This document shows, in pieces, positions 10,572-64,000 of a stretch of 64,000 nt of DNA. Where the stretch lies: positions 2,559 through 66,558 of the IMG/VR virus record IMGVR_UViG_3300043774_000134. One strand, written 5' to 3'. The notes below the pieces were generated by a model, which had not been told where the DNA came from, ran no database searches, and saw only the letters and a program-made list of their open reading frames with translations. Positions within the stretch are counted from its first letter, which is position 1, and each line of letters opens with the position of its first letter. A program made the translations under genes and the position numbers. Source of the stretch: a virus.

Positions 10572-10616
10572 TTAAAGTTGTTTGCTGTTTGGGCTATTGG
10601 GAAAGTCAAGTGCCAT
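10572..10616 (-). pseudogene. 14-codon remnant of a fibre gene (MALDFPNSPNSKQL*)
   Basis: Near-identical 26-bp direct repeat of the 5' end of 10048-10557. Confidence 0.65.
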
Positions 10617-10625
10617 GTCTATATC

Positions 10626-12041: not shown

Positions 12042-12520
12042 ATTGTCGTGCCTCCGTCAATAGAAATTTCAAAAACATCTTTTCTGTATGGGCTTACTAG
12101 TGTATATACTGGTGACCAAATTGAATACTGTTTTTTATCACCAGAAACAATTCTATATCTACAAGCATATATACTAAGATATGTACTATAGGATGTGCCA
12201 GTTACAGTTGTTAATGAAACATTTGTAGCTGGATCAGAGTTATAGAAAAAAGAAAAAGTATATACGTTTGTTTCTCTATCTATAGATATGTCAGTAACTA
12301 GATGTGAACCATTAAAAATTGAATCAATACCCTCGACTGACACGTATTGTCCTACAGTAAATCCATGACTGGTTGATGTTGTTAGCGTACCAACGTTGTT
12401 TACCATTTGTTTTTTTGTAACTACAAAACTATTTAACTTATTTATATTATTTACAACTATTGGATCTGGAAGATTTCTTGCAAGGTATATCGTTTTTTGT
12501 AGTCCACTAAGAACTGCCAT
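12038..12520 (-). CDS. Minor tail/baseplate protein
   Basis: Tail module context; HGFTVGQYVSVEGI repeat unit. Confidence 0.6.
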   Translation of the reverse strand: MAVLSGLQKTIYLARNLPDPIVVNNINKLNSFVVTKKQMVNNVGTLTTSTSHGFTVGQYVSVEGIDSIFNGSHLVTDISIDRETNVYTFSFFYNSDPATNVSLTTVTGTSYSTYLSIYACRYRIVSGDKKQYSIWSPVYTLVSPYRKDVFEISIDGGTTI

Positions 12521-12522
12521 AG

Positions 12523-13725
12523 CTAAACCACATCCAGACCAAATCTAAATTCTACAAGGTTTGAAGTATTGGCATTTTTTACAATTGGCAAGTTTGTAGA
12601 GTTTGAATTTTTTACAATAGTGTATCCAGTCATTCCATAAATTGGATTTGTTGCTGTTACATTTTCTATTCTAAAAGCATCTAGGGCAACGTAATACTGA
12701 TCAGAGAGAACATCGTCACCACCATCATCAACAAAAACTGATGCATAGATTTTTGCAACCGTGGCATTGCCCCAACTAAATAAGGCACTACTTGTTAGCT
12801 CTGAAAGTTTTTTAGTAATAACCTTATATCTATTTTGAATTGTGTCTGCAGAAATCAAAACATTAAATCTAATTTTGTTTGTTGAGCTTGACGTATCATC
12901 TGACGAAAGTTCAAAAATTAATTTTACTTTGCTAAACGAGTCTATTTCTAGACTATCTTTTCCAATAATTGAAAATGCTAACTTAAGTTCGTCTTCTGGT
13001 GAATTTTGACTTAAATCAATACTTGTTCCAGTTAGATGAACATGGCTTCCATAATAACCGCTTGCATCTGTTGACTTAACCTCTAAAGTTTCTTCTGTTT
13101 CTCCTTCAATATAAGAAAGGTCACTAGGCAAAAGAATAACTCTATTCAAGTATCTTCCTGGCTCTTGCATATTAAGTCTAATGCTATCTTCAAATATAGA
13201 GTTATTTGAATTTGTTCTAAATGGAACTGTGGTTCCTTCTAGCTTAATTGCTCCATCATCACTTTCTCCATATAGTGGCACTGTATATGTCTGTAGTCCA
13301 GAGATTGAATTTTCAGTGTGGTACTCCCATTTTTCAGTATCACCAAAATCATAAATCATTCTACTATCTTTGTTTGCTGCTACAGGATTTGTTTTAGCTG
13401 GGAACAGCCCTAGTTCTGTAATTCTGTAAGTTTGTTCACTAGGAAGTTCTGCTGTAAAAACAATTTTAGAGACTTCTTCATATTCTAGTGTAGTAGGATT
13501 ATAAACAAGATCAGTAACGTATCCTCTTGATGTAACCTGTGTTCTAAACATTTCCATATCAAGAGATTGCTTGTTTGCAAAATCATTATCAATAGCATAA
13601 TCTGCAAGATCATCAGTATTTGCCAAAGCTTCTGGTCCACATCCAAACGCAATGTATGATGCATATGCTGGTGCTTGACCAATCATAAATTTTGCAATAA
13701 TGTCTTTACCTTTATTTGTAATCAT
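12523..13725 (-). CDS. Minor tail/baseplate protein
   Basis: MITNKGKDIIAK..YIAFGCG..ITELGLF, typical of baseplate-type proteins. Confidence 0.7.
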   Translation of the reverse strand: MITNKGKDIIAKFMIGQAPAYASYIAFGCGPEALANTDDLADYAIDNDFANKQSLDMEMFRTQVTSRGYVTDLVYNPTTLEYEEVSKIVFTAELPSEQTYRITELGLFPAKTNPVAANKDSRMIYDFGDTEKWEYHTENSISGLQTYTVPLYGESDDGAIKLEGTTVPFRTNSNNSIFEDSIRLNMQEPGRYLNRVILLPSDLSYIEGETEETLEVKSTDASGYYGSHVHLTGTSIDLSQNSPEDELKLAFSIIGKDSLEIDSFSKVKLIFELSSDDTSSSTNKIRFNVLISADTIQNRYKVITKKLSELTSSALFSWGNATVAKIYASVFVDDGGDDVLSDQYYVALDAFRIENVTATNPIYGMTGYTIVKNSNSTNLPIVKNANTSNLVEFRFGLDVV

Positions 13726-50393: not shown

Positions 50394-50799
50394 AATAATA
50401 TAATTATATCGTATGTTTTATAAGTTATCCACACCCTGTTGATAACATATAACTAATTAAGCTCGCTTTTAGTCGGCGGTAAATTTCGGCGCCGAGAAGT
50501 ACCCCATATACCTGTCCAAACAAGATGAAACATCCAAATGGACAAATAAATATGATATCGAAGTATCGGAAAATAACAATATATCCCCCATATCGGAATA
50601 TCCAGATATTGTGCTATCCTTATATCGACCCCAGTCATGCCACAGGTTCGGAAACCAGCATAAACCCCAAATAGGATTGCTCTCTAGTAATAGGGAGCTT
50701 TCTTATTTGATCAATAGAAGTAACACTAATGAGTGATTGATCAAGACAGCCTTTGGCTGTTATGTACCCTCGAAAATTAAGCTATGTTATAATTGAGAT

Positions 50800-51018
50800 A
50801 TGGAAAATAAAGAAAATGAACCAGAAGATGTTAAATTCCTTGATCTATTTAATCCAAACTCACCAAGATCAAATGAGGATGAAATTAAAGCTAGACTTGA
50901 TATTTGTAACCAATGTCCTTACTTAGGAAAGAAACTAAAGCGTTGTGGTCTATGTGGTTGTTTTATGTCATTGAAGACTACTTTGTTAGAAGCTAAATGT
51001 CCTATTGACAAATGGTAA
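50800..51018 (+). CDS. Small Cys-rich protein
   Basis: RLDICNQC..CGLCGCFM..KT..CP..KW; leaderless TATAAT-N6-ATG. Confidence 0.75.
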   Translation: MENKENEPEDVKFLDLFNPNSPRSNEDEIKARLDICNQCPYLGKKLKRCGLCGCFMSLKTTLLEAKCPIDKW

Positions 51019-51182
51019 GCATCTTTGCTATAATAGATCTATGTGTAATGGAAATTGCTCTTGTGATACCCCCGAAGTTTTAAAATATGATCTATCAGAA
51101 GATTGCTTATGCATCTTTGATGGAAACCCAGACTTTTGTATTTGTATTGACATAAGTGAACCCACAGCGTAAGGAGAGAAAC

Positions 51183-51356
51183 GTGGATAAACCAAAAGAT
51201 AAACTTTATCAGGATAAGACCTGGCTTGCTACTGAGCTTGAAACTAAATCTACCCGAAAAATTGCTAAAGAGCAAAGGGTTAGCTATAAGCTTATTAATG
51301 TATGGGCTTTGAACTATGGACTCATTGAGCGATCAGAAGAAACAATCCTTGCATGA
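51183..51356 (+). CDS. Small HTH protein
   Basis: LYQDKTWL..KSTRKIAKEQRVSYKLINVW..YGL; AAGGAG before GTG 51183. Confidence 0.65.
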   Translation: MDKPKDKLYQDKTWLATELETKSTRKIAKEQRVSYKLINVWALNYGLIERSEETILA

Positions 51357-51712
51357 GGGATAAATTGTCTACCCTGCAAAAAATTCTAATATCTATAGCA
51401 GGACTTGGCACTATTGTGTTGTGCAATCTTGTTGTGATCTTTATTGCAAAAGCATTTGGTGCTTAATCTGAAAAATTTTGTATTTTCCAATTTGAAGATT
51501 TTCTGAATAATTTTTAGAGATGTACGATACATGCCTCACAGAAATAAATCAACAAAAATATAGTGAGCACACTGAAAGTGACTATACGCACCCAAAACTT
51601 TCTCAAACTATTTTTTGACTTATCGGCGTGTCGCATTGCTAATGTCAGTGGTTACTGATTAGATATAGATATAGAAAGAAACCAAGCAAAACCTAAAAGA
51701 ATGGAAAACAAA

Positions 51713-51832
51713 ATGTTCGGAATCACAAAGTCAGAAGGCTACTACTGGGTACGCGTTGGACAGAGCACTACTAAGGTTGGTCACAAGACTTTCCGTTCAG
51801 CACTTGCTCACCTTATCACTGGCATTGCCTAA
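51713..51832 (+). CDS. Small hypothetical protein (39 aa)
   Basis: MFGITKSEGYYWVRVG..; promoter and SD upstream. Confidence 0.65.
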   Translation: MFGITKSEGYYWVRVGQSTTKVGHKTFRSALAHLITGIA

Positions 51833-51885
51833 GTTTCACTGTCATAGGCTAACGATAAACTAAAGACATAAAGAAAGGATAACTA

Positions 51886-52029
51886 ATGTATATAGTAGAA
51901 GTAATCAAGAAGGGAATCGGAGTCATTGAGACTTTCGGTTCACGCTCTAGGGCAGAAGCAGAAGCACAGAAGAATGTGTATGCTCTCATGTATCCTGAGT
52001 GTGTAGTAATGATGGAGTGGAGTAACTAA
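51886..52029 (+). CDS. Small hypothetical protein (47 aa)
   Basis: MYIVEVIKKG..; AGAAAGGA SD. Confidence 0.7.
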   Translation: MYIVEVIKKGIGVIETFGSRSRAEAEAQKNVYALMYPECVVMMEWSN

Positions 52030-52259
52030 GGGTAGGGGATCCCCTCCCTATACCCCCAACATATGGGCCTGTGTATAACTTATCCACAATTTGGCGCCGC
52101 CCTGTGTATAACTTGTCCACAGGTTACGCATACGTCTAAGATCCCTCGAAAAAAATCTTTTATTTATTTTTGCGTTTGTCGGCGTGTCGCGTAGGTAATG
52201 TCGTAGGTGTGTGATTAGATATAGATATAGAAACAAACACAGAAAGAATGGAAAACAAA

Positions 52260-52346
52260 ATGGAAATCGTAATCGTAATCATGTGGTCGCTTGCTCTCGC
52301 ACCATTCGCATACATTGCTGTATCGTACTGGTGGAGTGGTCGCTAG
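52260..52346 (+). CDS. Membrane micropeptide (28 aa)
   Basis: MEIVIVIMWSLALAPFAYIAVSYWWSGR. Confidence 0.6.
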   Translation: MEIVIVIMWSLALAPFAYIAVSYWWSGR

Positions 52347-52406
52347 TTTCACTGTCAGACCCTACTGCTATACTCTAACTAACAAACAAAAAGAATGGAT
52401 AACAAA

Positions 52407-52532
52407 ATGTCAGAAGAAACTCGAATGCTAACAAGCCTTATCATTGGTGGAGGTCTTTGTGCCTTCGTCTTCATCGGTATCATCGCAATGGCTATTGCGG
52501 CTACCTACTACGGAAAGAAAGAGGGTAAGTAA
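52407..52532 (+). CDS. Membrane micropeptide (41 aa)
   Basis: MSEETRMLTSLIIGGGLCAFVFIGIIAMAIAATYYGKKEGK. Confidence 0.65.
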   Translation: MSEETRMLTSLIIGGGLCAFVFIGIIAMAIAATYYGKKEGK

Positions 52533-52533
52533 T

Positions 52534-52680
52534 ATGACTACCACTACTAAGACTTGCTACCTATGCTATACCCCTGGTATGCCTGATGTACCTGCTGTAG
52601 AGTATTCGCCCTATGGCTACCCTGCCTGTGCTAGCCACTATGCTAGTGACTTTGATGAGTTTGCTAGCGATTATTCGTAA
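52534..52680 (+). CDS. Small zinc-binding protein
   Basis: MTTTTKTCYLC..CASH; true start inside tracked ORF 52444. Confidence 0.65.
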   Translation: MTTTTKTCYLCYTPGMPDVPAVEYSPYGYPACASHYASDFDEFASDYS

Positions 52681-52850
52681 TCACGGCGTGTCGCCTTGAC
52701 ATTCCCCCGATTTTGGGCGCCGCCTGTGGATAACTTTGTGGATAACTCTGTTACGGAACCGTTATAAAATCTTCCCGATTGGTGGAAAAAGTAGGGGTCA
52801 AATGTCAGTGGGTCGTGTTAGTCTGTTTACAGATAGAAAGGAAAAAGCAA

Positions 52851-52961
52851 ATGGGATTTATGAAAATCATCACCGCTGAAGGTGTACAAGACATTGAGAC
52901 TATGACGGTTGAGCAATTGCTCGGTCTTCAGGTCGCCCTAATGGCAGAAAAAGATAAATAA
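52851..52961 (+). CDS. Small hypothetical protein (36 aa)
   Basis: MGFMKIITAEG..; GAAAGGAA SD. Confidence 0.65.
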   Translation: MGFMKIITAEGVQDIETMTVEQLLGLQVALMAEKDK

Positions 52962-53035
52962 CTTTTTTTCGCAAACACGGCGTGTCGTCTTGACAAATCG
53001 TAGAATGTGTGATTAGATAGTAATATAAATAAACA

Positions 53036-53128
53036 GAGAGAGAATGAGCCTCAGAGAATGAGCCTTAGCAAATAATCCCGATAGGGTGAGCCTAAGCAAA
53101 TAAGTCTCAGAGCAAATAAGTCTCTCTC
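53036..53128 (+). ncRNA. Candidate structured RNA with three UGAGCC/AGCAAAUAA modules
   Basis: Closing stem GAGAGAGA/TCTCTCTC; inner GAGA/TCTC and CCC-GATA-GGG; TTGACA-N17 promoter upstream. Confidence 0.55.
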
Positions 53129-53146
53129 ACTAAGAAAGGTAAACTA

Positions 53147-53311
53147 ATGGAATATGTAAACAAGACTCCCCTAATGGATGAGGTATTGGAAGCCGTTATG
53201 GCTAAGTATGGCTACGAGACTAAGTCTCAGGCATACCCCTTCGTAATCGGTATGGCTACCGAATGTATCTCAGTCGAATCGTTTAGCCGTATGCTAGACG
53301 CACTAAAGTAA
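53147..53311 (+). CDS. Small hypothetical protein (54 aa)
   Basis: MEYVNKTPLMDEVL..; AGAAAGG SD. Confidence 0.7.
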   Translation: MEYVNKTPLMDEVLEAVMAKYGYETKSQAYPFVIGMATECISVESFSRMLDALK

Positions 53312-53328
53312 AGAAAGGAAAACTCAAA

Positions 53329-53466
53329 ATGAAAATTTGTGAAGTTTGTGAAAAGTCTGTAGAGACTGTGTTCGTGTCCGCTTATGGCGAATGGCTTATC
53401 TGTAAGCCTTGCCTTATCTCTGAGCGTTTCGCAATTATGCGTAGCGAGGGTGAGTTTGCTAGTTAG
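53329..53466 (+). CDS. Small CxxC-CxxC zinc finger protein
   Basis: MKICEVC..ICKPC; SD. Confidence 0.7.
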   Translation: MKICEVCEKSVETVFVSAYGEWLICKPCLISERFAIMRSEGEFAS

Positions 53467-53682
53467 CAGACTACCCCCAGGGATCCCCGACATATACCAA
53501 TTTTAGAATACACGGCGTGTCGGTTTGCGTATTCCCAAAAAATCGGCGCCCCCCTGTGGATAACTTATCAACAGTTTACGTTGGACTACAAAAATGCCTC
53601 AAACTTTTTTCAGACTTATCGGCGTGTCGTGGTTTCATTGTCGGTGGGTCGTGCTAGGCTGAGGGTAACGAAAGGAAAACTA

Positions 53683-53889
53683 ATGGAAACTAGAACACAA
53701 AAGGCTAAGGGCTTCGTCGGTAAGACTGTCCGCTTCACTAGCAAGCCTCGCCCATTCGGTCCAGCCTACACCTATGAGGGTCTGGTCGTAAAGGTAAAGG
53801 GTCTGAACGCTGACGGCTCAGAGATTCACTTTGAGGACGGTCGAAAGACTTTCTACAACTGGGGAGTGTCCGCCGAGATTCTCTCTTAG
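53683..53889 (+). CDS. Small beta-barrel-like hypothetical protein
   Basis: METRTQKAKGFVGKTVRF..; AACGAAAGGAAAACTAATG. Confidence 0.75.
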   Translation: METRTQKAKGFVGKTVRFTSKPRPFGPAYTYEGLVVKVKGLNADGSEIHFEDGRKTFYNWGVSAEILS

Positions 53890-53939
53890 AGTGTCGGTGG
53901 CTACCCCTATACTGTAATCATAACGAAAGGAAAACTAAA

Positions 53940-54110
53940 ATGGAATGTGAAATCTGTGACTACCGTCAGGCACTTGAGGTGCTTCAGTATGACACCGAAA
54001 TTGCTGAGTTGGAGTTTGTGGCTGTGTGCCAGAACTGCCACGACGCTATCGTGTGCGATAAGTTGGAAACTCAATTCGCTATCGTTGATATCTTCCCGAT
54101 TGCAGACTAG
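53940..54110 (+). CDS. Small CxxC-CxxC zinc finger protein
   Basis: MECEIC..VCQNC; promoter + SD. Confidence 0.7.
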   Translation: MECEICDYRQALEVLQYDTEIAELEFVAVCQNCHDAIVCDKLETQFAIVDIFPIAD

Positions 54111-54118
54111 GAGAAAAA

Positions 54119-54250
54119 ATGGAACGCTCACCGCTTTATTATTTTGTCCGTGGCGTGTGTCGGTTTATTGTTCAAATCGGCATAGCCATAGGCGTATTGT
54201 TTTCTGCCTATTGGTTCATTCTTCTGTTTTGGGCAACCTTCTACCCCTAG
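54119..54250 (+). CDS. Membrane micropeptide (43 aa)
   Basis: MERSPLYYFVRGVCRFIVQIGIAIGVLFSAYWFILLFWATFYP; AGGAG SD. Confidence 0.65.
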   Translation: MERSPLYYFVRGVCRFIVQIGIAIGVLFSAYWFILLFWATFYP

Positions 54251-54386
54251 GAAAATGGATCGACCCTATCGGCGTGTCGGCTTGACAAATGTCGGTGGGG
54301 GCGGCGCCGCCCACCGTTACCTATTTGTTATTAAGGAATACGAAAAAAATGCCTCAAATGTCAGAGTGGTGTGGTAGGGTTTAGGT

Positions 54387-54746
54387 ATGAAGAAATGCTC
54401 GAAGTGCGAACAGACCCTCGCTCACTCCTCGTTCTCTCCCTCCTCTGGTGGGAAGTATCTGCGACCTGAGTGTCGTGACTGTGGTCGCAAGTTGGCTAAT
54501 GAGCGTCGTGCTTTGCGTAAAGAGTATGGCTACCCCGAATCAGGACACACCTGCCCTATCTGTCTAAAGTCAGAAGATGAACTCAAGGGGACAGGTGGCA
54601 ACGCTTCCATTTGGGTAGTAGACCACGACCACGGTACAGGTGCATTCCGTGGACACATCTGCCACAACTGCAACCGTGGCTTGGGTGTGTTCCAAGATGA
54701 CCTAGACCGTATCGCTAGGGCAATGGAATATTTGCAAAACGCCTAG
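54387..54746 (+). CDS. Endonuclease VII-family (HNH-like) nuclease, leaderless
   Basis: [26 protein letters not shown]; N-terminal CxxC..CxxC. Confidence 0.88.
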
Positions 54747-54875
54747 CCAGGACTTGACAGTTCGCTAGGGATCGGCGCCCCCCTTCGTTACCAAAACGTT
54801 ATTAAGTAAGTTACGAAAAACCTTGTAAATGTCGGAGGCTCGTGTTAGTCTTGTATTACAACGAAAGGATAACTA

Positions 54876-55097
54876 ATGATTTTTGAGCCTGTCTTCGGTG
54901 AAGACTTTGAGATTGTCGCCTACCTTGACGACCTCGGCAACGAGTGGACTGTTGAGGAAACCCAGGACTACTGGAATGTTTCTGGCAACTCGCTTGAGTC
55001 GCAAGACTATGAGCCTGACGAGTCTTGGTGGGATGCCGACGCTATTGCCTCTGCTGGCTGGGGAACCGACGAGGACTACGGATACTACGGAGAGTAG
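54876..55097 (+). CDS. Hyper-acidic small protein
   Basis: 21 D/E and no K/R/H in 73 aa; DADAIASAGWGTDEDYG. Confidence 0.8.
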   Translation: MIFEPVFGEDFEIVAYLDDLGNEWTVEETQDYWNVSGNSLESQDYEPDESWWDADAIASAGWGTDEDYGYYGE

Positions 55098-55144
55098 GCG
55101 AGGGCGCCGATCTCGCTGTCGGTGGCTCATGTTATAGTCATTAT

Positions 55145-55366
55145 ATGAACGAATACGAAACCCTTGAAATCCTGTCCGAATACGAAGCAAAGGCTAACTA
55201 TGATGCCTTACTAGACGAGTGCTACCCTATCGTGTCTATTGGTTACTCAGAGTTTTATCCCTCAACGGTACTCAAAGAGTGTGACCCAATCGCATATCGC
55301 TGTGGCTTTGCTGACTATGTAGACTCATTAGCAGAAGAGGGAACTATGGTCGAGGGCTACTGCTAG
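55145..55366 (+). CDS. Acidic hypothetical protein, leaderless
   Basis: MNEYETLEIL..LDECYP..LKECDPIAYRCGF. Confidence 0.8.
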   Translation: MNEYETLEILSEYEAKANYDALLDECYPIVSIGYSEFYPSTVLKECDPIAYRCGFADYVDSLAEEGTMVEGYC

Positions 55367-55476
55367 GGGGGGCGGCGCCGCCGCTTCGTTACCATTTTGT
55401 TATACGAAACGCCCTCTAAATGCCCTAGAATGTCGGTGGTCACTGCTACACTGTTTATATAACGAAAGGAAAACTA

Positions 55477-55623
55477 ATGCCAGAATGTGAAGTATGCCAG
55501 CACCGTGATTCGGTCTACATGGTAGATGTTGACTATGGTCGCATTATTCTTGTTTGTGCTACCTGTATCAACATCTTCCCCGATGGAGTAATCGTGGCTG
55601 AGGCAGATACCCGACTCATTTGA
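55477..55623 (+). CDS. Small CxxC-CxxC zinc finger protein
   Basis: MPECEVC..VCATC; consensus SD. Confidence 0.7.
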   Translation: MPECEVCQHRDSVYMVDVDYGRIILVCATCINIFPDGVIVAEADTRLI

Positions 55624-55669
55624 GTGTCAGTGGTCACTGCTAAAATAGAAACATAACGAAAGGAAAACT

Positions 55670-55840
55670 ATGGAATACAAATATGTAACTGTATCAGTCT
55701 CACTGCTTGAGAACTTGGTGCGACTGAATCGTGAAGACCAGGCACGATGCAAAGAAATGGGTCTTCGTGAAATGGAACAATGGCACGAGGGTCGTGCTAT
55801 GGCTTTTGAGTTTATTCTCTCTGAGTTTGCAAACAACTAA
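55670..55840 (+). CDS. Small hypothetical protein (56 aa)
   Basis: MEYKYVTVSVSLLE..; consensus SD. Confidence 0.7.
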   Translation: MEYKYVTVSVSLLENLVRLNREDQARCKEMGLREMEQWHEGRAMAFEFILSEFANN

Positions 55841-55858
55841 CGAAAGGCAAGAACTAAA

Positions 55859-56041
55859 ATGATGACACGCAAAGACTATGTATTTACCGCTGATGTAATC
55901 AACGATATGTATCACTTTTCACACGCTACCGATAAAGAAATTGAGAATATGTCAATCGCTTTTGCTGATTACTTTAGCAATGACAATGAGCGTTTTGACC
56001 GTAAGATTTTCTTCAACGCTTGCTACCGAGAGAAGGACTAA
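55859..56041 (+). CDS. Conserved-type small phage protein
   Basis: MTRKDY..A..F..DN.RFD..F..AC pattern. Confidence 0.75.
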   Translation: MMTRKDYVFTADVINDMYHFSHATDKEIENMSIAFADYFSNDNERFDRKIFFNACYREKD

Positions 56042-56170
56042 ATGAGTATGCTCCCATTGTTCGCATTTATGTTTGGGGTCATTGTGTTTGACACGGTAGT
56101 GATTCTCTACCTGTATGCCAAATACAAGAATGCTAAGTATGAGGCATATCTAAACCGACCACCCTTCTAG
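56042..56170 (+). CDS. Membrane micropeptide (42 aa)
   Basis: MSMLPLFAFMFGVIVFDTVVILYLYAKYK.. Confidence 0.6.
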   Translation: MSMLPLFAFMFGVIVFDTVVILYLYAKYKNAKYEAYLNRPPF

Positions 56171-56262
56171 GAGGGGGCGGCGCCCCGATCCGTTATCGGA
56201 ATGTTATTAAGTATCTTACGAAAAATGCCGTGAATGTCAGTGGTCAATGCTAAGATTGAGTT

Positions 56263-56424
56263 ATGAAGAAGAAACCAGCACCCAAGAAGATTCAGAACAC
56301 CGCATACATTATTGCTATGCGAGGTCTGCGTAGTTCCAATGCGGCTACTACGCACGACAATCGACCTAATCGTCAGAGGACTCGTTCAGCAGTCAAGCAG
56401 GTTGCTATTCGGGAGTATGCCTGA
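56263..56424 (+). CDS. Basic small protein, leaderless
   Basis: MKKKPAPKK..MRGLRSSNAATTHDNRPNRQRTRSAVKQVAIREYA. Confidence 0.7.
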   Translation: MKKKPAPKKIQNTAYIIAMRGLRSSNAATTHDNRPNRQRTRSAVKQVAIREYA

Positions 56425-56438
56425 TAGAATAGGATAAT

Positions 56439-56512
56439 GGCTCTGTAGCTCAGTTGGTTAGAGCACTACCCTGTCACGGTAGGGGTCGCCAGTTCAAGTC
56501 TGGTCAGAGTCG
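56439..56512 (+). tRNA. tRNA-Asp(GTC)
   Basis: Acceptor GGCTCTG/CAGAGTC; anticodon arm CTACC-CTGTCAC-GGTAG; TTCAAGT T-loop; no encoded CCA. Confidence 0.95.
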
Positions 56513-56610
56513 CAAATCGAACAAAGGAGTTACTATGTAACAGAGTAAACCAGCCACACTTACCGAAACCTAGGTGTAAAAAAGTAGGGGTGTGGTGTAG
56601 TAAATGTTAT

Positions 56611-56685
56611 TCCCCTTTAGCTCAACGGCAGAGCAACGAGCTGTTAACTCGTAGGTTCTTGGTTCGAATCCAAGAGGGGGAGCCA
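56611..56685 (+). tRNA. tRNA-Asn(GTT)
   Basis: Acceptor TCCCCTT/AGGGGGA; ACGAG-CTGTTAA-CTCGT; TTCGAAT; encoded CCA. Confidence 0.95.
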
Positions 56686-56756
56686 GGATCCAAGGGCGCC
56701 GACCTCACTGTCAGTGGTAGGTGTTACGATAGTATTACTTAGGAAAGGAAAAAATC

Positions 56757-56936
56757 ATGGCTTATGTATCTGAGTATGGTAACTATGGTGGTGAGGGAGT
56801 AATTGTATTCCCAGACTATCAACTTACCCCCGAACAATGGGATGAGTTAGATGTTCTGCCAGACAACGACAAAATGTCGTATGTTAAGGGTATACTAGAT
56901 GAAAACGAACTAGGATATATGGAGTTTAACGACTAA
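56757..56936 (+). CDS. Acidic small hypothetical protein (59 aa)
   Basis: MAYVSEYGNYG..LTPEQWDEL; SD. Confidence 0.7.
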   Translation: MAYVSEYGNYGGEGVIVFPDYQLTPEQWDELDVLPDNDKMSYVKGILDENELGYMEFND

Positions 56937-57127
56937 TGGGAGAAGCAATGAAGCGTGAATCATACATTCCACCTAAAGGAATGACACAAAAAGAGTTCCT
57001 AACTATAGTTGCAAATGACCTAGTAGATATGGTAGTCTTGAAACAGGTAGACTTTACCTATGTGCCAAGTGTTCGTGACTTTATTATCAAACATTCTAAA
57101 TCCCGCCACAGAAAGGTAGCAAAGTGA
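56936..57127 (+). CDS. Hypothetical protein
   Basis: Translationally coupled ORF. Confidence 0.6.
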   Translation: MGEAMKRESYIPPKGMTQKEFLTIVANDLVDMVVLKQVDFTYVPSVRDFIIKHSKSRHRKVAK

Positions 57128-57267
57128 AAAGCAATCCATTTGAGGGAGACGAGCAGGGTATGGAAATTATGGATGCCCTTGACGAATACTATAAGAATCC
57201 CCAAGACTACACATTCCGTGACCTTGAGGAAATCTTCCAAGACCGTGACCCATTCGAGTTTCTCTAA
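57124..57267 (+). CDS. Acidic small hypothetical protein
   Basis: GTG start overlapping the upstream stop; KSNPFEGDEQG..DRDPFEFL. Confidence 0.6.
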   Translation: MKSNPFEGDEQGMEIMDALDEYYKNPQDYTFRDLEEIFQDRDPFEFL

Positions 57268-57275
57268 GGAGCAAA

Positions 57276-57488
57276 ATGAAAAAGTATGATATCACTGCTA
57301 CTGTCAAGCTGTATGACTTTTGTATGCCTGACGACTTTGACCCTGAGAACAATGACGGTGGAGACATCCTAGTCGCCCTTGATATGTATGTAGATGAAAA
57401 GACATATCAAACAGGATGGCGAACATTCGAAGAGACTATGAAGGTGTCTGGCGATTGGGTTAGTGCTACCTATAAGGTAGTCGAGTAG
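57276..57488 (+). CDS. Hypothetical protein
   Basis: AAGGAG SD; 70 aa. Confidence 0.7.
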   Translation: MKKYDITATVKLYDFCMPDDFDPENNDGGDILVALDMYVDEKTYQTGWRTFEETMKVSGDWVSATYKVVE

Positions 57489-57613
57489 TGGAGTTTTTCC
57501 TACTACTCGTGATATCGGTATTGTTGATAGGAGTTATTTTGTTAATCATCTCTCCCCTGATTTTTACCGTGCTGTTTATCATTGAGAGTGTTTTGCAGAG
57601 ACGAAGACACTAG
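57488..57613 (+). CDS. Membrane micropeptide
   Basis: EFFLLLVISVLLIGVILLIISPLIFTVLFII.. Confidence 0.5.
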   Translation: MEFFLLLVISVLLIGVILLIISPLIFTVLFIIESVLQRRRH

Positions 57614-57680
57614 GAAAGATCGGCGCCGCTTTCACTGTCAGTGGGTACTGATACAGTTGTATTACAACGAAAGGGAAAAA

Positions 57681-57809
57681 ATGCCGAACATGAAACTCAC
57701 ACCAACTAGGGCTGGACTTATTTTTGAGTGTGTAGACTGTGGCTCAAAGTTTGAGGCACTTGGCACAGAGGCAGACGAACACGAATGTATGACCGTCTTC
57801 TCATTCTAA
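57681..57809 (+). CDS. Small zinc-binding protein
   Basis: FECVDC..EHEC; SD. Confidence 0.65.
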   Translation: MPNMKLTPTRAGLIFECVDCGSKFEALGTEADEHECMTVFSF

Positions 57810-57855
57810 TGTCGGTGGCTACTGCTAAACTGAAACCCTACGAAAGGAAAAACTA

Positions 57856-58332
57856 ATGGGCTTGGATATGTATCTTGAGGTTCGTCGCACACTTCGTACC
57901 TACACTTGGGATGACCAGTTTGAGAAAATTGACAACCAGTTTGGGCAGTCTCTTGTTGCTCTTGCTGGTATGGAACACTTGGCTGGTCAAGAAAACTCTA
58001 GCGTCAGCATTGAGGTCAATGCAATCTATTGGCGTAAGGTAAACTCTGTTCACCAGTGGTTTGTTGATAACATCGGTGGTGGTGTAGACGAGTGTCAGCG
58101 TATGTATGTCAAACGCAAAGACCTAGAGGACTTGCGTGACTTGGTGAAGGACACTCTCATTCACCGCAACAAGGCTAGCGTTACTCTGCCAACGCAGGGT
58201 GGATTCTTCTTTGGCTCAACCGAGTATGACGAATACTATTGGGGAGATTTGGAATACACGGCTAAGGAGTTAGACCGTGTGCTTGCCAACGCTAAGGAAA
58301 GCGATGACTTCTTCTATCAGGCTTCCTGGTAG
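57856..58332 (+). CDS. Conserved-type phage protein of unknown function
   Basis: MGLDMYL..YWRKVN.VH.WFV..LPT..GFFFGSTEYDEYY..Y.ASW. Confidence 0.85.
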   Translation: MGLDMYLEVRRTLRTYTWDDQFEKIDNQFGQSLVALAGMEHLAGQENSSVSIEVNAIYWRKVNSVHQWFVDNIGGGVDECQRMYVKRKDLEDLRDLVKDTLIHRNKASVTLPTQGGFFFGSTEYDEYYWGDLEYTAKELDRVLANAKESDDFFYQASW

Positions 58333-58458
58333 CAAGACGAGGGGTGCGACTCGATAACGCATGACCCTTCGGGGTCGGCGCCGATCCGTAACCTAATTGT
58401 TACTTACGATATGTCTATTAAGACTCTCACTGTCGGTGGCTGGTGTTATAGTAAAGGT

Positions 58459-59181
58459 ATGACAAAGTTGATTCGTAGCAAAGACCGTAAAGTAACCAAC
58501 GCTGTAACGCCTAACGGCAAGCAAGCCAGTATCGCTAACACTTTTGGTTTGCCTAGCGGAACGGCATTCTCATGTCCAGGTGCTACTAGCGTATGCGAAA
58601 CTATCTGCTACGCTGGCAAGTTGGAAAAAGTCTTCAAGGGTGTGCGTATCAACCTCGAACACAACTGGGCATTAGTCAAAGACGCAGACTACCTAACCAT
58701 GTATAACCTTATCCACGAAATGATTAGCGACTTTGTTTCTGATTGCGAGCGTCGTGGTGCAGAGAAACTATTCCGCATTCACTGGGACGGTGACTTCTTC
58801 AACGAAGACTACACTATCGCATGGCGTGATGTGATTTGTGACTTTCAGGATGTGCAATTCTGGGCATACACACGAAGCGACTTTGCTGTGCCTATCCTGA
58901 TTGACATTCCTAATCTTGGTTTCTACTTCTCAACCGATAGTGCTAACAAAGAATTGGCTATCAGTCTCAAAGAGACTCACGGTATCAAGTTGGCTTACCT
59001 TGCTCAGACATTCGCTATTGGTAAGGCTGACATTCTTGAGATTACTGGTGAGAGTGCTATCCCATGCCCCGAAAATAACAAGAAACTGCCAATGATTAGC
59101 GAAAAGGGTAGTGCCTGTGTTACCTGTGGGCAATGTATCTTCCAACGCAATGACATTCTGTTTTCTGCTACCAAAAAGTAG
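58459..59181 (+). CDS. GP88-family protein (Cys-cluster, radical-SAM-like), leaderless
   Basis: FGLPSG..CPGATSVC...CYA; FRIHWDGDF; FWAYTR. Confidence 0.8.
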   Translation: MTKLIRSKDRKVTNAVTPNGKQASIANTFGLPSGTAFSCPGATSVCETICYAGKLEKVFKGVRINLEHNWALVKDADYLTMYNLIHEMISDFVSDCERRGAEKLFRIHWDGDFFNEDYTIAWRDVICDFQDVQFWAYTRSDFAVPILIDIPNLGFYFSTDSANKELAISLKETHGIKLAYLAQTFAIGKADILEITGESAIPCPENNKKLPMISEKGSACVTCGQCIFQRNDILFSATKK

Positions 59182-59351
59182 CGGAGGGCGGCGCCCCCCC
59201 GATCCAAATCCCTATGTTACGATTAGGTAACAAAAGGCTGAAAAGTGCCATTTGGACTTGCTATTGTCGGTGGTTACTGTCATACTTGATATATCAGCAA
59301 GACCGCTGGTAAATAAGTTGGCTGGCTCGCCAACAGAAAATGAGGAAGCAA

Positions 59352-59492
59352 ATGAATATCGGAGAAACCTTCACCACGCAGAAGTCGGGTGTGACTGGCA
59401 CGATTGCCGAAGTAATCAAGAACGCAAGCGGTTCAGTTCGTGTTCTGCTCACCCTGCCTAACGGCGACAGCCGTTGGACTACCGTCAAGTAG
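59352..59492 (+). CDS. Small beta-rich protein (46 aa)
   Basis: MNIGETFTTQKSGVTGTI..SVRV..RWTTVK. Confidence 0.75.
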   Translation: MNIGETFTTQKSGVTGTIAEVIKNASGSVRVLLTLPNGDSRWTTVK

Positions 59493-59564
59493 TCTAACCC
59501 ATTGTGCTGGGCATCACCCTAAACTGCCCACTCCAAATCAAAAGCCAAATGAAAGGAAAACATA

Positions 59565-60014
59565 ATGGCTCGTTCACTCTCTGTGAAGATTCCCACCGCA
59601 ACGCTTATTGCTGATGTCGAGGCTACGATTGCTAAGATTGAGGAAGATGTTGCTAACTACCCTGCCCTGACCGAGAAGTATCGTGCGGACTCTAAGGCTT
59701 ACAACGACAAGATTGTCCAACTGACGATTGACGCTATCAAGAAGAAGTCTGACCTTATCGGAACTGACTACGGCTCGCCTATTCGTGTGACCTCTGGCTA
59801 CCGAGGCAACTCCGTTCAGATTGAGGTAGACGGTGACGCTCTTGGATTCCCACAGAAGCCTGACGCACCCTCTAACCCTAATGACCGCACCTACTATGGT
59901 CGTGACTACACGACTAAGTTGGACTTGCTGAAGAAGAACCTCAAGGTTCTCAATATGACCAACCAAGAGGAAGTCAATGCCTCCACCTACAATACGGTAA
60001 TGGAACTCCTCTAA
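59565..60014 (+). CDS. Hypothetical protein (149 aa)
   Basis: Consensus SD; biased codon usage. Confidence 0.8.
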   Translation: MARSLSVKIPTATLIADVEATIAKIEEDVANYPALTEKYRADSKAYNDKIVQLTIDAIKKKSDLIGTDYGSPIRVTSGYRGNSVQIEVDGDALGFPQKPDAPSNPNDRTYYGRDYTTKLDLLKKNLKVLNMTNQEEVNASTYNTVMELL

Positions 60015-60053
60015 TGGAAAATGACCTGAGTATGTCTAAGTAAACTGCTCAAG

Positions 60054-60108
60054 CCCCCTATGTGAAGCGTCTGGATAGATTGCTGGTAAACATAGGGGGT
60101 TTCCTTTT
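60054..60108 (+). terminator. Long hairpin + U tract
   Basis: CCCCCTATGT..ACATAGGGGG-TTTCCTTTT. Confidence 0.7.
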
Positions 60109-60216
60109 GGGCGAGGGCGGCGCCCCGATCAGTCGCCATGTAACAAACAGGTTACGATGTTACGAAAACAACCCCTAGAGGTTGTAAATGTCAGTGGTTG
60201 CTGTCATACTTAGGAT

Positions 60217-60441
60217 ATGGAAAAGAAAATGGGAACATACTTCATCGTTAGCGGTGAGTCGTATTATGTGCGAGCCAATTCTGAGGAAGAGGCTGAGGCT
60301 GTTTGGAATGTCGGCATGGGATACCTTGACGCTTCTAACTACCCAGAATTTGATATTGAAGAAGACCCCTTCGAGCGTATCGAATATGGAGAGGCATACA
60401 CCACGGTTGAGTCTATCGTAGACTTCAGTGTCAGTGGCTAG
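60217..60441 (+). CDS. Acidic small protein
   Basis: YVRANSEEEAEA motif; leaderless. Confidence 0.7.
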   Translation: MEKKMGTYFIVSGESYYVRANSEEEAEAVWNVGMGYLDASNYPEFDIEEDPFERIEYGEAYTTVESIVDFSVSG

Positions 60442-60475
60442 TGTTAGACTTAGAATAACAACGAAAGGGAAAAGA

Positions 60476-60733
60476 ATGATTGACAAGGCTTTTGGACTAC
60501 AAGAGGCAGTGCGTAACGCTGTCTACTCAGATGGTGTGCGACTGTCGGCACTAAACATTCTTCACGGTCACCAGATGATGAACGAGGAAGAAATGCAAAA
60601 GGCACTAATGGAACTTGTCTCAGAATTGGCAAGTGTGTCGTCCTTCTTCACAGTACAGGTTTTGCTGTCGGAGGATGAACAGAACGAATTGGCAGACACG
60701 ATTGATATGCTTCAGGGAATGGGGAACAACTAA
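60476..60733 (+). CDS. Hypothetical protein
   Basis: MIDKAFGLQEAV..; promoter 60429 + SD. Confidence 0.75.
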   Translation: MIDKAFGLQEAVRNAVYSDGVRLSALNILHGHQMMNEEEMQKALMELVSELASVSSFFTVQVLLSEDEQNELADTIDMLQGMGNN

Positions 60734-61206
60734 TGATGGACTTTGAGAACATAAACATTGAGATGAAAGACCTGCCACCTGTACCTAGTGATGGCGACCT
60801 TGGTATCGAGACGGCTCTGGCTAATCGTGTCAACGACCTGACTAAGGAACTTGAGGTAGTCAAGGCTAGCAATGACGACTGGCGTGAGCGTTTCGGCAAA
60901 GAGCAAAACAAGATTTATGAGATTCGTAACAACCTTGGGGAACTTCTCAAGACACAGATTGAGCACGAACTAATCACCAACACTGGTGCTAAAGAGATTG
61001 CTGAACTGGTCGGTATCGAACTGACCAAGACGGTTACCGTCACTGGCTCGGTATCATTCCAAGGAACCATTGAGATTAGTATCTTCGATGACACTGATGA
61101 ACTTAGTCAGTATGACATTGAGGTAGACCTGAACGTTAGCCACGACTACGACTCTCTGAACAACTTCGACTATGATGTAGAGTCTATGGAGTTTGAGGAA
61201 GAGTAG
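60733..61206 (+). CDS. Acidic coiled-coil protein
   Basis: 157 aa, translationally coupled. Confidence 0.8.
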   Translation: MMDFENINIEMKDLPPVPSDGDLGIETALANRVNDLTKELEVVKASNDDWRERFGKEQNKIYEIRNNLGELLKTQIEHELITNTGAKEIAELVGIELTKTVTVTGSVSFQGTIEISIFDDTDELSQYDIEVDLNVSHDYDSLNNFDYDVESMEFEEE

Positions 61207-61434
61207 GCCATTAAAGCTAGGGTGGGACCTTGTTAATTCCTTTCTTAGCTCCCATCCTATAGACCTGGGCATGTCTTTAAAAGGCCCTTTCTCATACCCT
61301 GCGAGGGCGGCGCCCCGATCTGCGAATGTAACGTTTTAATTACGATGATTAAGAAAATGTCCCCAAAGCTTGTAATTGTCGGTGGTCTGTGTCATACTTA
61401 GATAAGTAAACAAACCGCTAACGAAAGGCACGAT

Positions 61435-62457
61435 ATGTCACACGAATTGGAAAAGGGCGAGAACGGCGAGGTTGCTTTCGCATCGTTCCGTGAACCTGCT
61501 TGGCATGGTCTTGGGACTGTGTTCGAGGAAGAAGTAAAGACCGCAGATATGCTGAAGTTGGCACATCTTGACAACTGGAATGTTCGCCTTGAGGAGATTC
61601 CTATCCCTGACGGCTTTGTCTCTGACAAGACTAACTACTTTGTTGCTCGCACTAACCCATTCAACGACAAGCAGAATGACATTCTCGGTATCGTTGGTGA
61701 ACGTTACAACACTCTTCAGAACGAGGACTTGTTCACATTCGGTGACAACCTGCTAGACGGTGGTGGACGCTGGGAGACTGCTGGCTCTATCAAGGGTGGT
61801 CGTGTTGTGTTCGGTGCTCTTGCTCTTGAGCGTGAGACTGTGCTTGACCCTAACGGTGTAGGCGACAAGGTAAACACTTACCTGTTGGTAAACACCTCTC
61901 ACGACGGTAGCGTATCCATTATGGCTAGCATTACCCCTGTGCGTGTCGTGTGTGCCAACACTCTGAACATGGCTATCGGTAGTGGCACAGGTCACTGGCG
62001 TAGTGCTAAGCAGTCGTTCAAGATTCGTCACACTCAGACTGCTGAGGGTCGTGTTCACGAGGCTCGTGTTGCTCTTGGTCTTGCCAACGAATACATGGAC
62101 GAGTTTGACAAGATGGCACAGGCTATGATTGAGACTGAGGTCAGTAACGACACATTCCAAGATATCATTCGTGAGGTCTACCCCATGCCTGAGAAAGACG
62201 CTAAGGGTGCTATGTCCAAGTGGAACACCAAGCTGGAACTCATTGAGGACATCTACAACGGTCAGTTCAACAACACGATTTCTGGAACGGCTTGGGGTGT
62301 GCTCAACGGTATCACCGAGCGTCTTGACTGGTATCGTGCTGGACGCAAGGGTAACAGCGAGTCTGTCCTTGCCTCTGCCTCTGGCTTTGACCCTGCTATG
62401 AACGCTGAGAAGAATCGTATCCTTCGCATTGTTCAGAACATGACAATGGCTTCCTAG
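61435..62457 (+). CDS. DUF932 (phage/plasmid-like) protein
   Basis: PAWHGLG..LQN..F..ETAGSIKGGRVVF..YLLV..SHDGS..TPVRVVCANTL..IRHT..GTAWG. Confidence 0.9.
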   Translation: MSHELEKGENGEVAFASFREPAWHGLGTVFEEEVKTADMLKLAHLDNWNVRLEEIPIPDGFVSDKTNYFVARTNPFNDKQNDILGIVGERYNTLQNEDLFTFGDNLLDGGGRWETAGSIKGGRVVFGALALERETVLDPNGVGDKVNTYLLVNTSHDGSVSIMASITPVRVVCANTLNMAIGSGTGHWRSAKQSFKIRHTQTAEGRVHEARVALGLANEYMDEFDKMAQAMIETEVSNDTFQDIIREVYPMPEKDAKGAMSKWNTKLELIEDIYNGQFNNTISGTAWGVLNGITERLDWYRAGRKGNSESVLASASGFDPAMNAEKNRILRIVQNMTMAS

Positions 62458-62605
62458 TCGGTCAGTCACTGCCTCCCTTCGGGGAGGTGGTGGCGGCGCC
62501 GATCCTTTCTATATATAAATAGAGAAACATATAATTACGATTACGATAGTGTAACAAAACTCCTGGGAAGTTTACATTGTCAGTGGCCTATGTCATACTT
62601 GAGGT

Positions 62606-62707
62606 ATGAATGAATTTGAGAAGGCTATGCAGATTGTACTGTCAGAGGCTCTTGCTAGACTAGAGTCAATACCAGATGAAGAAATCGAAAGGTTGTATAT
62701 ATCCTAA
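62606..62707 (+). CDS. Small hypothetical protein, leaderless
   Basis: MNEFEKAMQIVLSEALARL.. Confidence 0.55.
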   Translation: MNEFEKAMQIVLSEALARLESIPDEEIERLYIS

Positions 62708-62880
62708 TGGGCATTTACTATGTTAAGACTGTTGTAGAGTTTTCTGGTGAGGTTGAGGCTGATACCGCCGAGGAAGCAGAAGCAATGGGCTGGAAGTGGG
62801 AAGACGAACTCATGTATGACGGAGTGTATTCTATCGATGTAGAGGAATTGGAGTCTGATGAAGATGACGATGAGAGTTAA
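62707..62880 (+). CDS. Acidic small protein
   Basis: MGIYYVKTVVEFSGEVEADTAEEAEA.. Confidence 0.7.
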   Translation: MGIYYVKTVVEFSGEVEADTAEEAEAMGWKWEDELMYDGVYSIDVEELESDEDDDES

Positions 62881-62986
62881 GCCTTGTGTTGATTGCAACA
62901 TAATGATTGACGCAGATGTATGGCAAGAAGAATTAGGTATGTGTTTAGATTGTTCAAACAAGTATTGGAGTCACGAAGATGAGTAG
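62870..62986 (+). CDS. Small CxxC-CxxC protein
   Basis: MRVKPCVDC..EELGMCLDC. Confidence 0.65.
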   Translation: MRVKPCVDCNIMIDADVWQEELGMCLDCSNKYWSHEDE

Positions 62987-63140
62987 TTACCGAGTTAAGG
63001 TTGAGCAGACCAGTTACTGTGTTGTAGATGTAGAGGCCGAAGATGAGTTTGACGCTGAGTCTGTAGCAATTGAGATGTGGGGCGACGGCGACCTTGATGG
63101 ATTGTTCCAGCACGATGTTCAGATTATCATTGAAGACTAG
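62979..63140 (+). CDS. Acidic small protein
   Basis: MSSYRVKVEQ..VDVEAEDEFDAESVA. Confidence 0.65.
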   Translation: MSSYRVKVEQTSYCVVDVEAEDEFDAESVAIEMWGDGDLDGLFQHDVQIIIED

Positions 63141-63148
63141 GAGTAATA

Positions 63149-63394
63149 ATGGCTAAACCAAAAGCAAGCGACCAAACCTGGAGACGTATCTATCACTCGC
63201 AGGTTGCGGAGGTATTCGAATCAGATACCGAGAACGACTACTACAAGGTAGTACTAGAAGGACAACGACCTAAGTATTTATATGGTGAGTTAGCATTTCA
63301 AAACTACCAGCGTATTGTGCATGACTATGAGATGAAGACTATTTACTCACAAGACTACTCAGTTTACAAAAAGTATGAGTCCGTGGTAAAATAG
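63149..63394 (+). CDS. Hypothetical protein
   Basis: AGGAG SD; 81 aa. Confidence 0.7.
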   Translation: MAKPKASDQTWRRIYHSQVAEVFESDTENDYYKVVLEGQRPKYLYGELAFQNYQRIVHDYEMKTIYSQDYSVYKKYESVVK

Positions 63395-63397
63395 AAT

Positions 63398-63631
63398 ATG
63401 ACACCTACTATTTATACTAAACCCAACTGTGTACAGTGTGAGGCAACCAAGCGTTACTTTGATAACAAAGGTGTAGCCTACACTACCGTCGATATTACAC
63501 AGGATGCGGACGCACTCGATCGACTTATTGAAGAAGGATTTCAGGCTGCACCTGTAGTCAATGCAGGAATAGACTGGTGGAGTGGATTCCAACCAGACAA
63601 AATAGATAAGTACATCTCTGACTATTCGTAA
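63398..63631 (+). CDS. nrdH: NrdH-like glutaredoxin
   Basis: IYTKPNCVQC..GFQAAPVV..WSGFQPDKI. Confidence 0.93.
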   Translation: MTPTIYTKPNCVQCEATKRYFDNKGVAYTTVDITQDADALDRLIEEGFQAAPVVNAGIDWWSGFQPDKIDKYISDYS

Positions 63632-63659
63632 TGTCAGACCCTAGTGGTAAGGTGATAAC

Positions 63660-64000
63660 ATGGAAACAATTATAGACCTCACATACGAGGAATGGATAGA
63701 GCAGTACAAGCCACACCTAGATTTCGAAGGTAGCCCTATAGCCTACGAAACCTATGGTGACGACTATGACTACATCGCAGATATTGACAATGAGTATATT
63801 TGGACATGGACAGACGGTGGTGACTACAGTGTAATCACTAATGGTTTTAGTTATGTTAATCGACTCAACTACTATGTTTGTACCGTGCCGTCAGACACCA
63901 ATAAGATTATTCAGATAGATATGTATGTCATGACACTGTGTGACATGGGTAATCACATCTGGGTAGACCATGAGCGATACGACGGTACGCCTGTAATTAT
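63660..64000 (+). CDS. Acidic hypothetical protein, truncated by the window edge
   Basis: Leaderless; TYEEWIEQYKP..YETYG..IWTW..G..YVNRLNY. Confidence 0.75.
   Translation, partial: METIIDLTYEEWIEQYKPHLDFEGSPIAYETYGDDYDYIADIDNEYIWTWTDGGDYSVITNGFSYVNRLNYYVCTVPSDTNKIIQIDMYVMTLCDMGNHIWVDHERYDGTPVI

Follow-up and report, generated by a model that had tools for sequence, protein, structure and literature searches.

Candidate hybrid promoters with a PafBC-like −26 element in the small-gene arm of an uncultured phage

Which factor reads two dozen promoter-like sites that share the tetranucleotide TGTC and mostly do without a good −35 hexamer? The question is raised by one end of IMG/VR virus record IMGVR_UViG_3300043774_000134, of which the last 64,000 of 66,558 bases were analysed (this whole stretch of 64,000 nucleotides (nt), which ends together with the record, is called the window below; CheckV completeness of the record is 62%). 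Here 24 sites lie on one strand between positions 51643 and 63653, and a preliminary description had likened them to the promoters of PafBC, a stress activator of actinobacteria. The best explanation, which in our judgement has an even chance of being right, is that they are hybrid PafBC-class promoters in which a sigma-A −10 hexamer, usually preceded by TG, would be combined with a −26 element (TGTCnG, −28 to −23) that replaces the −35 and is read by the PafBC of the host. The binding of PafBC to the phage sites, the possession of PafBC by the host and the timing of expression are what we infer.

Abundance and anatomy of the sites

Exact matches to TGTCRG-N10-TANNNT number 19 in the window, against a mean of 1.05 in 100 shuffles (maximum 5; 19 was reached in 0/100). 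Seventeen of the 19 lie on the plus strand from 52353 to 63653, while the remaining two (5691 and 42180) are isolated plus-strand matches within the arm of minus-strand genes. Four further sites have CATACT as the −10 (59265, 60189, 61377 and 62578) and three are variants (51643 and 52199 with the −10 TTAGAT, and 51840 with TGTCAT...TAAACT), so that our pattern scan reproduced the preliminary count of 17 exact, four CATACT and three variant sites, 24 in total and all on the plus strand. None was found when the minus strand of the same arm was scanned for the pattern. The dinucleotide TG stands at −15/−14 (extended −10) in 22 of the 24 according to the site table, and an A follows the −10 at the seventh position in 23 of them (read from the printed downstream sequences). 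Counting this conserved A as +1, TGTC occupies −28 to −25 in all 24 sites and a conserved G lies at −23. Seven sites (54359, 55117, 56235, 58431, 60189, 62578 and 63632) are leaderless, with exactly 6 nt between hexamer and ATG as previously described, and in these the conserved A is the first base of the ATG; most of the others are followed by a GAAAGG-type ribosome site about 8–12 nt ahead of the ATG (13 were flagged by script). Taken as sequences, the 24 sites have the anatomy of promoters.

The statement that many sites lack a good −35 also held, as 18 of 24 match TTGACA in no more than three of six positions at 16–18 nt spacing. A TTGnnA-type −35 at 17 nt is present in the other six, and because all four CATACT sites have such a −35-like hexamer at 17 nt, their weak −10 appears to be compensated in the ordinary sigma-A manner. 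A standard sigma-70 scan of 50400–64000 returned 26 sites (22.8 expected) and caught only one of the 24. The sites, and the two features that frame them, are as follows.

51643–51664, plus strand: variant TGTCAGTGG with −10 TTAGAT, −35-like TTGCTA and the repeat CGGCGTGTCG 14 nt upstream
51840–51861, plus strand: variant TGTCATAGG...TAAACT, lacking TG
52199–52220, plus strand: variant TGTCGTAGG with −10 TTAGAT and CGGCGTGTCG 14 nt upstream
52353–52374, plus strand: exact site of the TGTCAGACCC subtype
52803–52824, plus strand: exact site, followed by a gene led by a Shine–Dalgarno (SD) sequence
53639–53660, plus strand: exact site with CGGCGTGTCG 14 nt upstream
53892–53913, plus strand: exact site lacking TG at −15/−14
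54359–54380, plus strand: exact site, leaderless, preceding the endonuclease VII gene (54387–54746)
54830–54851, plus strand: exact site with −35-like TTGTAA
55117–55138, plus strand: exact site, leaderless
55431–55452, plus strand: exact site, followed by an SD-led gene
55625–55646, plus strand: exact site, followed by an SD-led gene
56235–56256, plus strand: exact site, leaderless; the transcript would reach tRNA-Asp and tRNA-Asn
56709–56730, plus strand: exact site, followed by an SD-led gene
57636–57657, plus strand: exact site, followed by an SD-led gene
57810–57831, plus strand: exact site TGTCGGTGGCTACTGCTAAACT, a near-match to the recA promoter of genome G100
58431–58452, plus strand: exact site, leaderless, preceding the GP88-family gene (true start 58459)
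59265–59286, plus strand: CATACT site with −35-like TTGCTA at 17 nt
60189–60210, plus strand: CATACT site, leaderless, with −35-like TTGTAA
60429–60450, plus strand: exact site, followed by an SD-led gene
61377–61398, plus strand: CATACT site with −35-like TTGTAA, preceding the DUF932 gene (61435–62457)
62578–62599, plus strand: CATACT site, leaderless, with −35 TTTACA
62640–62661, plus strand: exact site within the preceding small open reading frame (ORF)
63632–63653, plus strand: exact site of the TGTCAGACCC subtype, leaderless
51005–51034, plus strand: canonical sigma-A promoter lacking the TGTC element, TTGACA-18-TATAAT including TG, which matches the consensus at 12 of 12 positions; a candidate immediate-early promoter
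50500–64000, plus strand: early arm with about 40 small genes and two tRNAs, extending to the contig end (ORF list and tRNA scan)

Likeness to PafBC promoters and conservation among related phages

In PMC8635444 the in vivo PafBC motif is given as tGTCgg(N10)tA(N3)T, with the hexamer at −28 to −23 and without a −35 consensus; the GTC triplet is contacted by residues R46 and R50 of PafB, and PafBC lies between the DNA and domain 4 of sigma-A. As the phage TGTC lies at −28 to −25 and its conserved G at −23, the phage sites equal this motif, the −26 element, in sequence and geometry, and the likeness to the PafBC class put forward in the preliminary description is thus borne out for motif and position. 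It extends to the recA promoters of possible host types, as which small Actinomycetia genomes (1.2–1.8 Mb) were taken from a class-wide sample of 401 genomes. A TGTC(A/G)G-N10-(T/C)AnnnT site lies upstream of recA in 14 of the 14 recA loci fetched from such genomes, and in six single-contig genomes (1.3–1.5 Mb) the recA site is like TGTCAGTGGCTCCTGCTACCTT, the form present in G100, and is followed by a LexA-type box. This promoter closely resembles phage sites, for example TGTCGGTGGCTACTGCTAAACT at 57810, and the full phage consensus (GTGG plus TG) selects only the recA promoter among the 11 G100 sites, as read from the list. The G+C content (GC) is about 49% in G100, G123 and G222, two of which belong to the six single-contig genomes and one of which (G123) is a seventh small genome.

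An adjacent pair of WYL genes was present in all 10 small Actinomycetia genomes tested. In G100 the pair is followed by tatC, and its first gene matches Mycobacterium smegmatis PafB (7p5x_AY, E 2.6e-32) and keeps both R46 and R50. As PafBC-type sites number only 8–11 per small genome (1–4 for a control pattern), the −26 element marks a small regulon rather than a general promoter feature. The G100 sites precede recA, carD, the gene for a LysM protein with a LexA-type box, and genes for a C5 DNA methylase, a trypsin-like peptidase and a DUF4395 protein, among others, and four of 10 are leaderless; three of these genes (recA, carD and the LysM gene) are damage-responsive in mycobacteria. Two side observations were made on these genomes. 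Five of the 11 PafBC-type sites of G100 fall within 24 kb (C1:450915–474346), ahead of the C5 DNA methylase, the trypsin-like peptidase, the LysM protein with its LexA-type box and two unknown proteins, and this cluster may be a damage-inducible island. A Pup-ligase match was absent in nine of 10 small genomes (G044, G074, G100, G123, G145, G166, G186, G206 and G222), yet the same nine keep the pafB–pafC pair and a PafBC-type recA promoter (tatC after the pair was checked in one genome, G100), and PafBC therefore seems to have been retained without the Pup–proteasome system beside which it was named.

Relatives of the phage were drawn from IMG/VR in two ways. A search with the DUF932 protein gave 33 related loci, and a motif scan gave at least 120 stretches, from which 80 loci among the matches listed were used; most of these 80 have a GC of 34–43% and share DUF932 or GP88 at 50–70% identity. 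The element is kept in more than 100 related IMG/VR contigs, where the constant part is (A)A-TGTC-N12-TAnnnT, while the bases that follow TGTC vary by clade (GTGG in the clade of the window, otherwise CGTGGGT, TGACCCC or GTAGGGT) and differing variants coexist inside one genome. The spacing was then taken from a census of 113 sources (112 related loci and the window) in which TGTC was not required when extended −10 sites were picked. TGTC stands exactly 12 nt upstream of the −10 in 438 of 980 extended −10 sites on the early strand, a count biased upward by the 80 of the 112 loci that had been picked for holding the motif. At any shift of 1–4 nt no more than five TGTC were counted, and the runner-up 4-mer at the position occurs 10 times. 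In the family logo (320 non-redundant sites) T−28 is invariant, A−30 is present in 88%, A−29 in 66%, G−23 in 84% and A at +1 in 78%, and the −10 is extended in 76% of sites.

The relation between TGTC and the −35 was followed in the same relatives. When the promoters of 15 DUF932 orthologues were aligned, the TTG of the −35 was present in 15/15, and TGTC was absent in 4/15, in which −35 and −10 stay. Across the relatives TTG was found in 33 of 187 TGTC sites, and the two elements are negatively associated (counts 33/154/67/170, odds ratio 0.54, p 0.011; it should be noted that the set is noisy). This weak anticorrelation fits a replacement of the −35 by TGTC, and would equally indicate that either element can do the job.

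The window as a whole has a GC of about 40%, and its remainder carries on the minus strand, over 1–50 kb, genes for DnaE, DnaG, DnaB, tail proteins, a capsid protein, a protease, a portal protein and an M23/peptidoglycan-binding lysin. This strand has 10 TGNTA(T/A/C)AAT sites, about seven of them directly before genes and none with TGTC, in agreement with the earlier view that the late genes use plain promoters of the TGnTATAAT type. Extended −10 sequences of the TGATATAAT type, often followed by TAAT, stand before structural genes on this strand (49959, 47081, 45541, 44945, 40558, 28316 and 13749), and having neither a −35 nor TGTC they would form a third promoter class. The small plus-strand genes of the other arm are probably early genes; the only families recognized among 20 early-arm proteins scanned are endonuclease VII, GP88, DUF932, glutaredoxin, DUF7178 and PHROG families without a known function. 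The sites of complete relatives all fall within an early arm of about 10 kb. In G005, whose record class is direct terminal repeats, the arm lies partly within an 8.5-kb terminal repeat and the sites recur at a constant offset of 116,023 nt.

A WhiB gene is present in each of the five complete relatives (among 14 control genomes WhiB matched Corynebacterium only), the portal protein has 44–47% identity with its counterparts in Streptomyces phages of clusters BE and BK, and GP88 and DUF932 homologues are frequent in mycobacteriophages and Streptomyces phages. The presence of WhiB in every complete relative and this homology to actinophages argue for an actinobacterial host, and the lake or freshwater labels of the public runs that hold most of the DNA are a hint of habitat, pointing to an uncultured lake phage of actinobacteria. 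Among the runs listed, none of them an RNA run, 12 contain at least half of the sampled words and three of these may be the source; the labels read lake water or freshwater metagenome, in one case just metagenome. Fish-gut runs contain 0.30–0.32 of the words and carry no weight as evidence. The lysin search yielded no host clue (mixed taxa, all scores below 0.9), and neither did the WhiB of a relative searched across genome contigs (a single Streptomyces locus at 41% identity). Among cultured phages a close DNA match was lacking, and when distant matches were sought, the DUF932 gene of BE phages was the sole one (about 66%).

Several repeats accompany the sites. CGGCGTGTCG occurs in seven exact copies, all on the plus strand, between 51624 and 54279 (nine with one mismatch allowed, 0.57 expected). 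The TGTC that it contains itself lies 14 nt upstream of the promoter TGTC at 51643, 52199 and 53639, and elsewhere the repeat stands directly before TTGACA; possibly it is bound as a second site, either by the factor that reads the promoters or by a different one. All 16 copies of GGCGCC in the window lie in the early arm (50488–62500; 2.77 expected) inside GC-rich blocks, which stand upstream of TGTC sites at 14 nt (three), 54–57 nt (five) or 68–83 nt (four). A decoy-like TTGACA-AA-TGTCGGTGG at 54282–54310 continues straight into a GGCGCC block, without a −10 hexamer. Ahead of many early genes (53670–60480) the ribosome-site context AACGAAAGGAAAACTAATG is nearly identical, and AACGAAAGG is present nine times within the last 14 kb. 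DnaA-box-like TGTGGATAAC sequences, often paired, mark the start of the arm (50424–50446, 52070–52112, 52725–52746 and 53555–53564), with 12 matches at up to one mismatch and 4.69 expected (12 were reached by one of 100 shuffles). The 9-mer TGTGGATAA is among the commonest words of several relatives.

Candidate readers of the element

If PafBC is the reader, a few canonical promoters at the start of the arm, such as that at 51005, would fire first. Single-stranded DNA (ssDNA) arising from the ends of the injected DNA, from early nuclease action or from replication would then activate host PafBC, which according to PMC11804915 is active only with ssDNA bound. Activated PafB would read the GTC triplet while PafC holds domain 4 of sigma-A (‘sigma adaptation’), and the housekeeping polymerase would fire at two dozen −26/−10 promoters that it otherwise ignores, so that a block of small phage genes would be coupled to the ssDNA alarm of the host. 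The evolutionary version of this reading, which we propose tentatively and hold slightly less probable than not, is that a lineage of lake actinophages swapped the early −35, kept in the Streptomyces-phage relatives, for the −26 element of host PafBC and thereby gated the start of infection by the host ssDNA alarm; this would be the first natural viral hijack of ‘sigma adaptation’ without an adaptor of its own.

A number of points weigh against host PafBC as the reader. The small genomes are possible host types only: they were picked by size from the class-wide sample, have a GC of 49% as against 40% in the phage, and nothing links them to it. A −35 of the TTGnnA type is carried by six of 24 sites, including all four with CATACT, and because the DUF932 promoters keep TTG in 15/15 and have lost TGTC in 4/15, the polymerase can evidently use some of the promoters without the element; the extended −10, in 76% of sites, could make them factor-independent. 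Phage sites have an invariant T at −28 and conserved A at −30 and −29; T or C is what host sites show there. The nearest cultured relatives, the Streptomyces phages Coruscant and Bmoc, do not use the element (Coruscant has three hits against five for the control, hence no enrichment), and yet their Streptomyces hosts should have PafBC; one Streptomyces genome has a Pup-ligase locus. The inactivity of PafBC without ssDNA (PMC11804915) is a risk for genes that seem to be expressed first and would need a trigger. Finally, no LexA boxes accompany the sites, the window having two matches at two mismatches (1.21 expected) of which none is in the early arm.

A phage-encoded mimic outside the window had been suggested as an alternative activator, and the searches lent this no support. 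The WYL domain was found in 0/11 phage records (G000, five complete relatives and five closer relatives, 52–100% complete) and a PafB homologue in 0/5 at E up to 1, the latter without a positive control. The proposed check for pafBC in the host and WYL genes in the phage therefore came out in part, with a pafB–pafC pair in possible host types only and none of the phage records holding a WYL domain. Sigma-70 region 4 (Sigma70_r4) was found in 0/5 complete relatives, while the control matched 14/14 genomes. The C-terminal domain of MotA (MotCF) and AsiA were each found in 0/7 records, which for want of a positive control is weak evidence. The scan of 20 early-arm proteins returned no DNA-binding family, and in none of the records searched did a phage copy of PafBC come to light. 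Promoters for a phage sigma factor were rejected on the absence of a Sigma70_r4 gene in all five relatives, and the 12-nt gap would in any case be too short for a −35/−10 pair.

A reader of the −26 element other than PafBC, which we regard as unlikely yet the most serious competitor, would be either another host regulator or a phage protein of novel fold that works like T4 MotA/AsiA and is expressed from the few canonical promoters or brought in with the virion. Compared with the host motif, the phage element is longer and allows less variation (A−30, A−29, invariant T−28 and G−23), the bases after TGTC are clade-specific, as co-evolution with a phage protein would give, and most early-arm proteins are without a known family; the second TGTCG-containing repeat, CGGCGTGTCG, with its seven copies and its place 14 nt upstream of TGTC at three promoters, points the same way. 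However, the coexistence of variants within one genome misfits a single co-evolving reader, none of the WYL, PafB, sigma region 4, MotA C-terminal and AsiA searches (the last two uncontrolled) nor the scan of 20 early-arm proteins for DNA-binding families produced a candidate, and a host reader of the identical motif is already known, with possible host genomes using the motif at recA.

That no factor is involved at all seems to us improbable. Sigma-A polymerase would then read the extended −10, with a −35 helping where the −10 is weak, and TGTC would be a spacer feature spread by cassette duplication or the operator of a repressor for later shut-off. The TG of 22/24 sites, the presence of a −35 exactly where the −10 is the weaker CATACT, the four orthologous promoters of 15 in which TGTC is lost and −35 and −10 remain, and the negative association of TGTC with TTG in the noisy set (odds ratio 0.54, p 0.011) are all as this would have it. 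Yet neither the four bases nor their spacing from the −10 varies between phages with only 50–70% identity in the proteins that they share, which argues for a contact within the initiation complex and not for drift; a repressor operator would need no single fixed spacing, and in possible host genomes the element is rare and found at recA, hence not a general sigma-A preference. That the array is chiefly a sponge, in which dozens of PafBC sites per phage genome draw PafBC and polymerase off host repair or defence genes and phage transcription is secondary, is very improbable: the 21 sites in a 12-kb arm against 8–11 in a whole genome of 1.3–1.5 Mb, and a 2025 report of PafBC affecting phage resistance in mycobacteria, cited in PMC12848934, would suit it, but every site is placed and oriented to drive a gene (+1 A, leaderless ATG or SD at the proper distance) and only one decoy-like copy without a −10 is present, near 54290.

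Significance and comparison with known systems

Phages are known to seize the host polymerase with proteins of their own, such as T4 MotA/AsiA and phage sigma factors. None of the papers listed in the literature searches describes phage promoters like those reported here, supplements being outside the search. What the present analysis adds is a census of the spacing, the observation that a −35 compensates for a weak −10, an orthologous promoter that has lost TGTC, the difference from BE phages and the pafBC and recA data from small genomes. If host PafBC is indeed the reader, polymerase takeover would proceed via a host stress activator, tying the early genes to the ssDNA sensor of the cell, and PafBC would gain a role in infection. 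It would also be explained why abundant freshwater phages have more PafBC-type sites than an entire genome of the host type, and the −26 element could be dissected with about two dozen promoter variants supplied by nature. Model actinobacteria would allow a direct test of the idea, since the motif is conserved and so are the PafB residues that contact it.

The closest likeness is to the PafBC (RecA-NDp, recA P1-type) promoters themselves. Shared are TGTCnG at −28 to −23 with an invariant GTC, the 10-nt gap to TAnnnT and the many leaderless starts (as in 4/10 G100 sites). A −35 is lacking at most phage sites but present at a quarter of them. The phage sites differ in their density (about 24 in 12 kb), in preceding small genes without a known function instead of repair genes, in conserving T−28, A−30 and A−29, in the rule of an extended −10 and in lacking a LexA box. 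The middle promoters of T4 (MotA box at −30 plus −10) likewise serve a sigma-70-type polymerase by means of an element upstream of the −10, at constant spacing and in place of the −35, but T4 encodes its adaptors, whereas here none was found and a host protein of matching specificity exists. PafBC has itself been likened to MotA/AsiA ‘sigma appropriation’ in PMC8635444. The Streptomyces BE-cluster phage Bmoc has a homologous small-gene arm with DUF932 (52–54% identity) in its terminal repeat (record 1–13305), and a GC-rich palindromic block before each cassette; its GGCCGCCCCGGCC blocks ahead of the early promoters are analogous to the GGCGCC-containing blocks of the window. In contrast, its promoters are ordinary TTGnnn-N17/18-TAGACT promoters with TGTC at the N12 position in only three of about 16, and by this comparison the freshwater lineage seems to have made an occasional TGTC element the rule.

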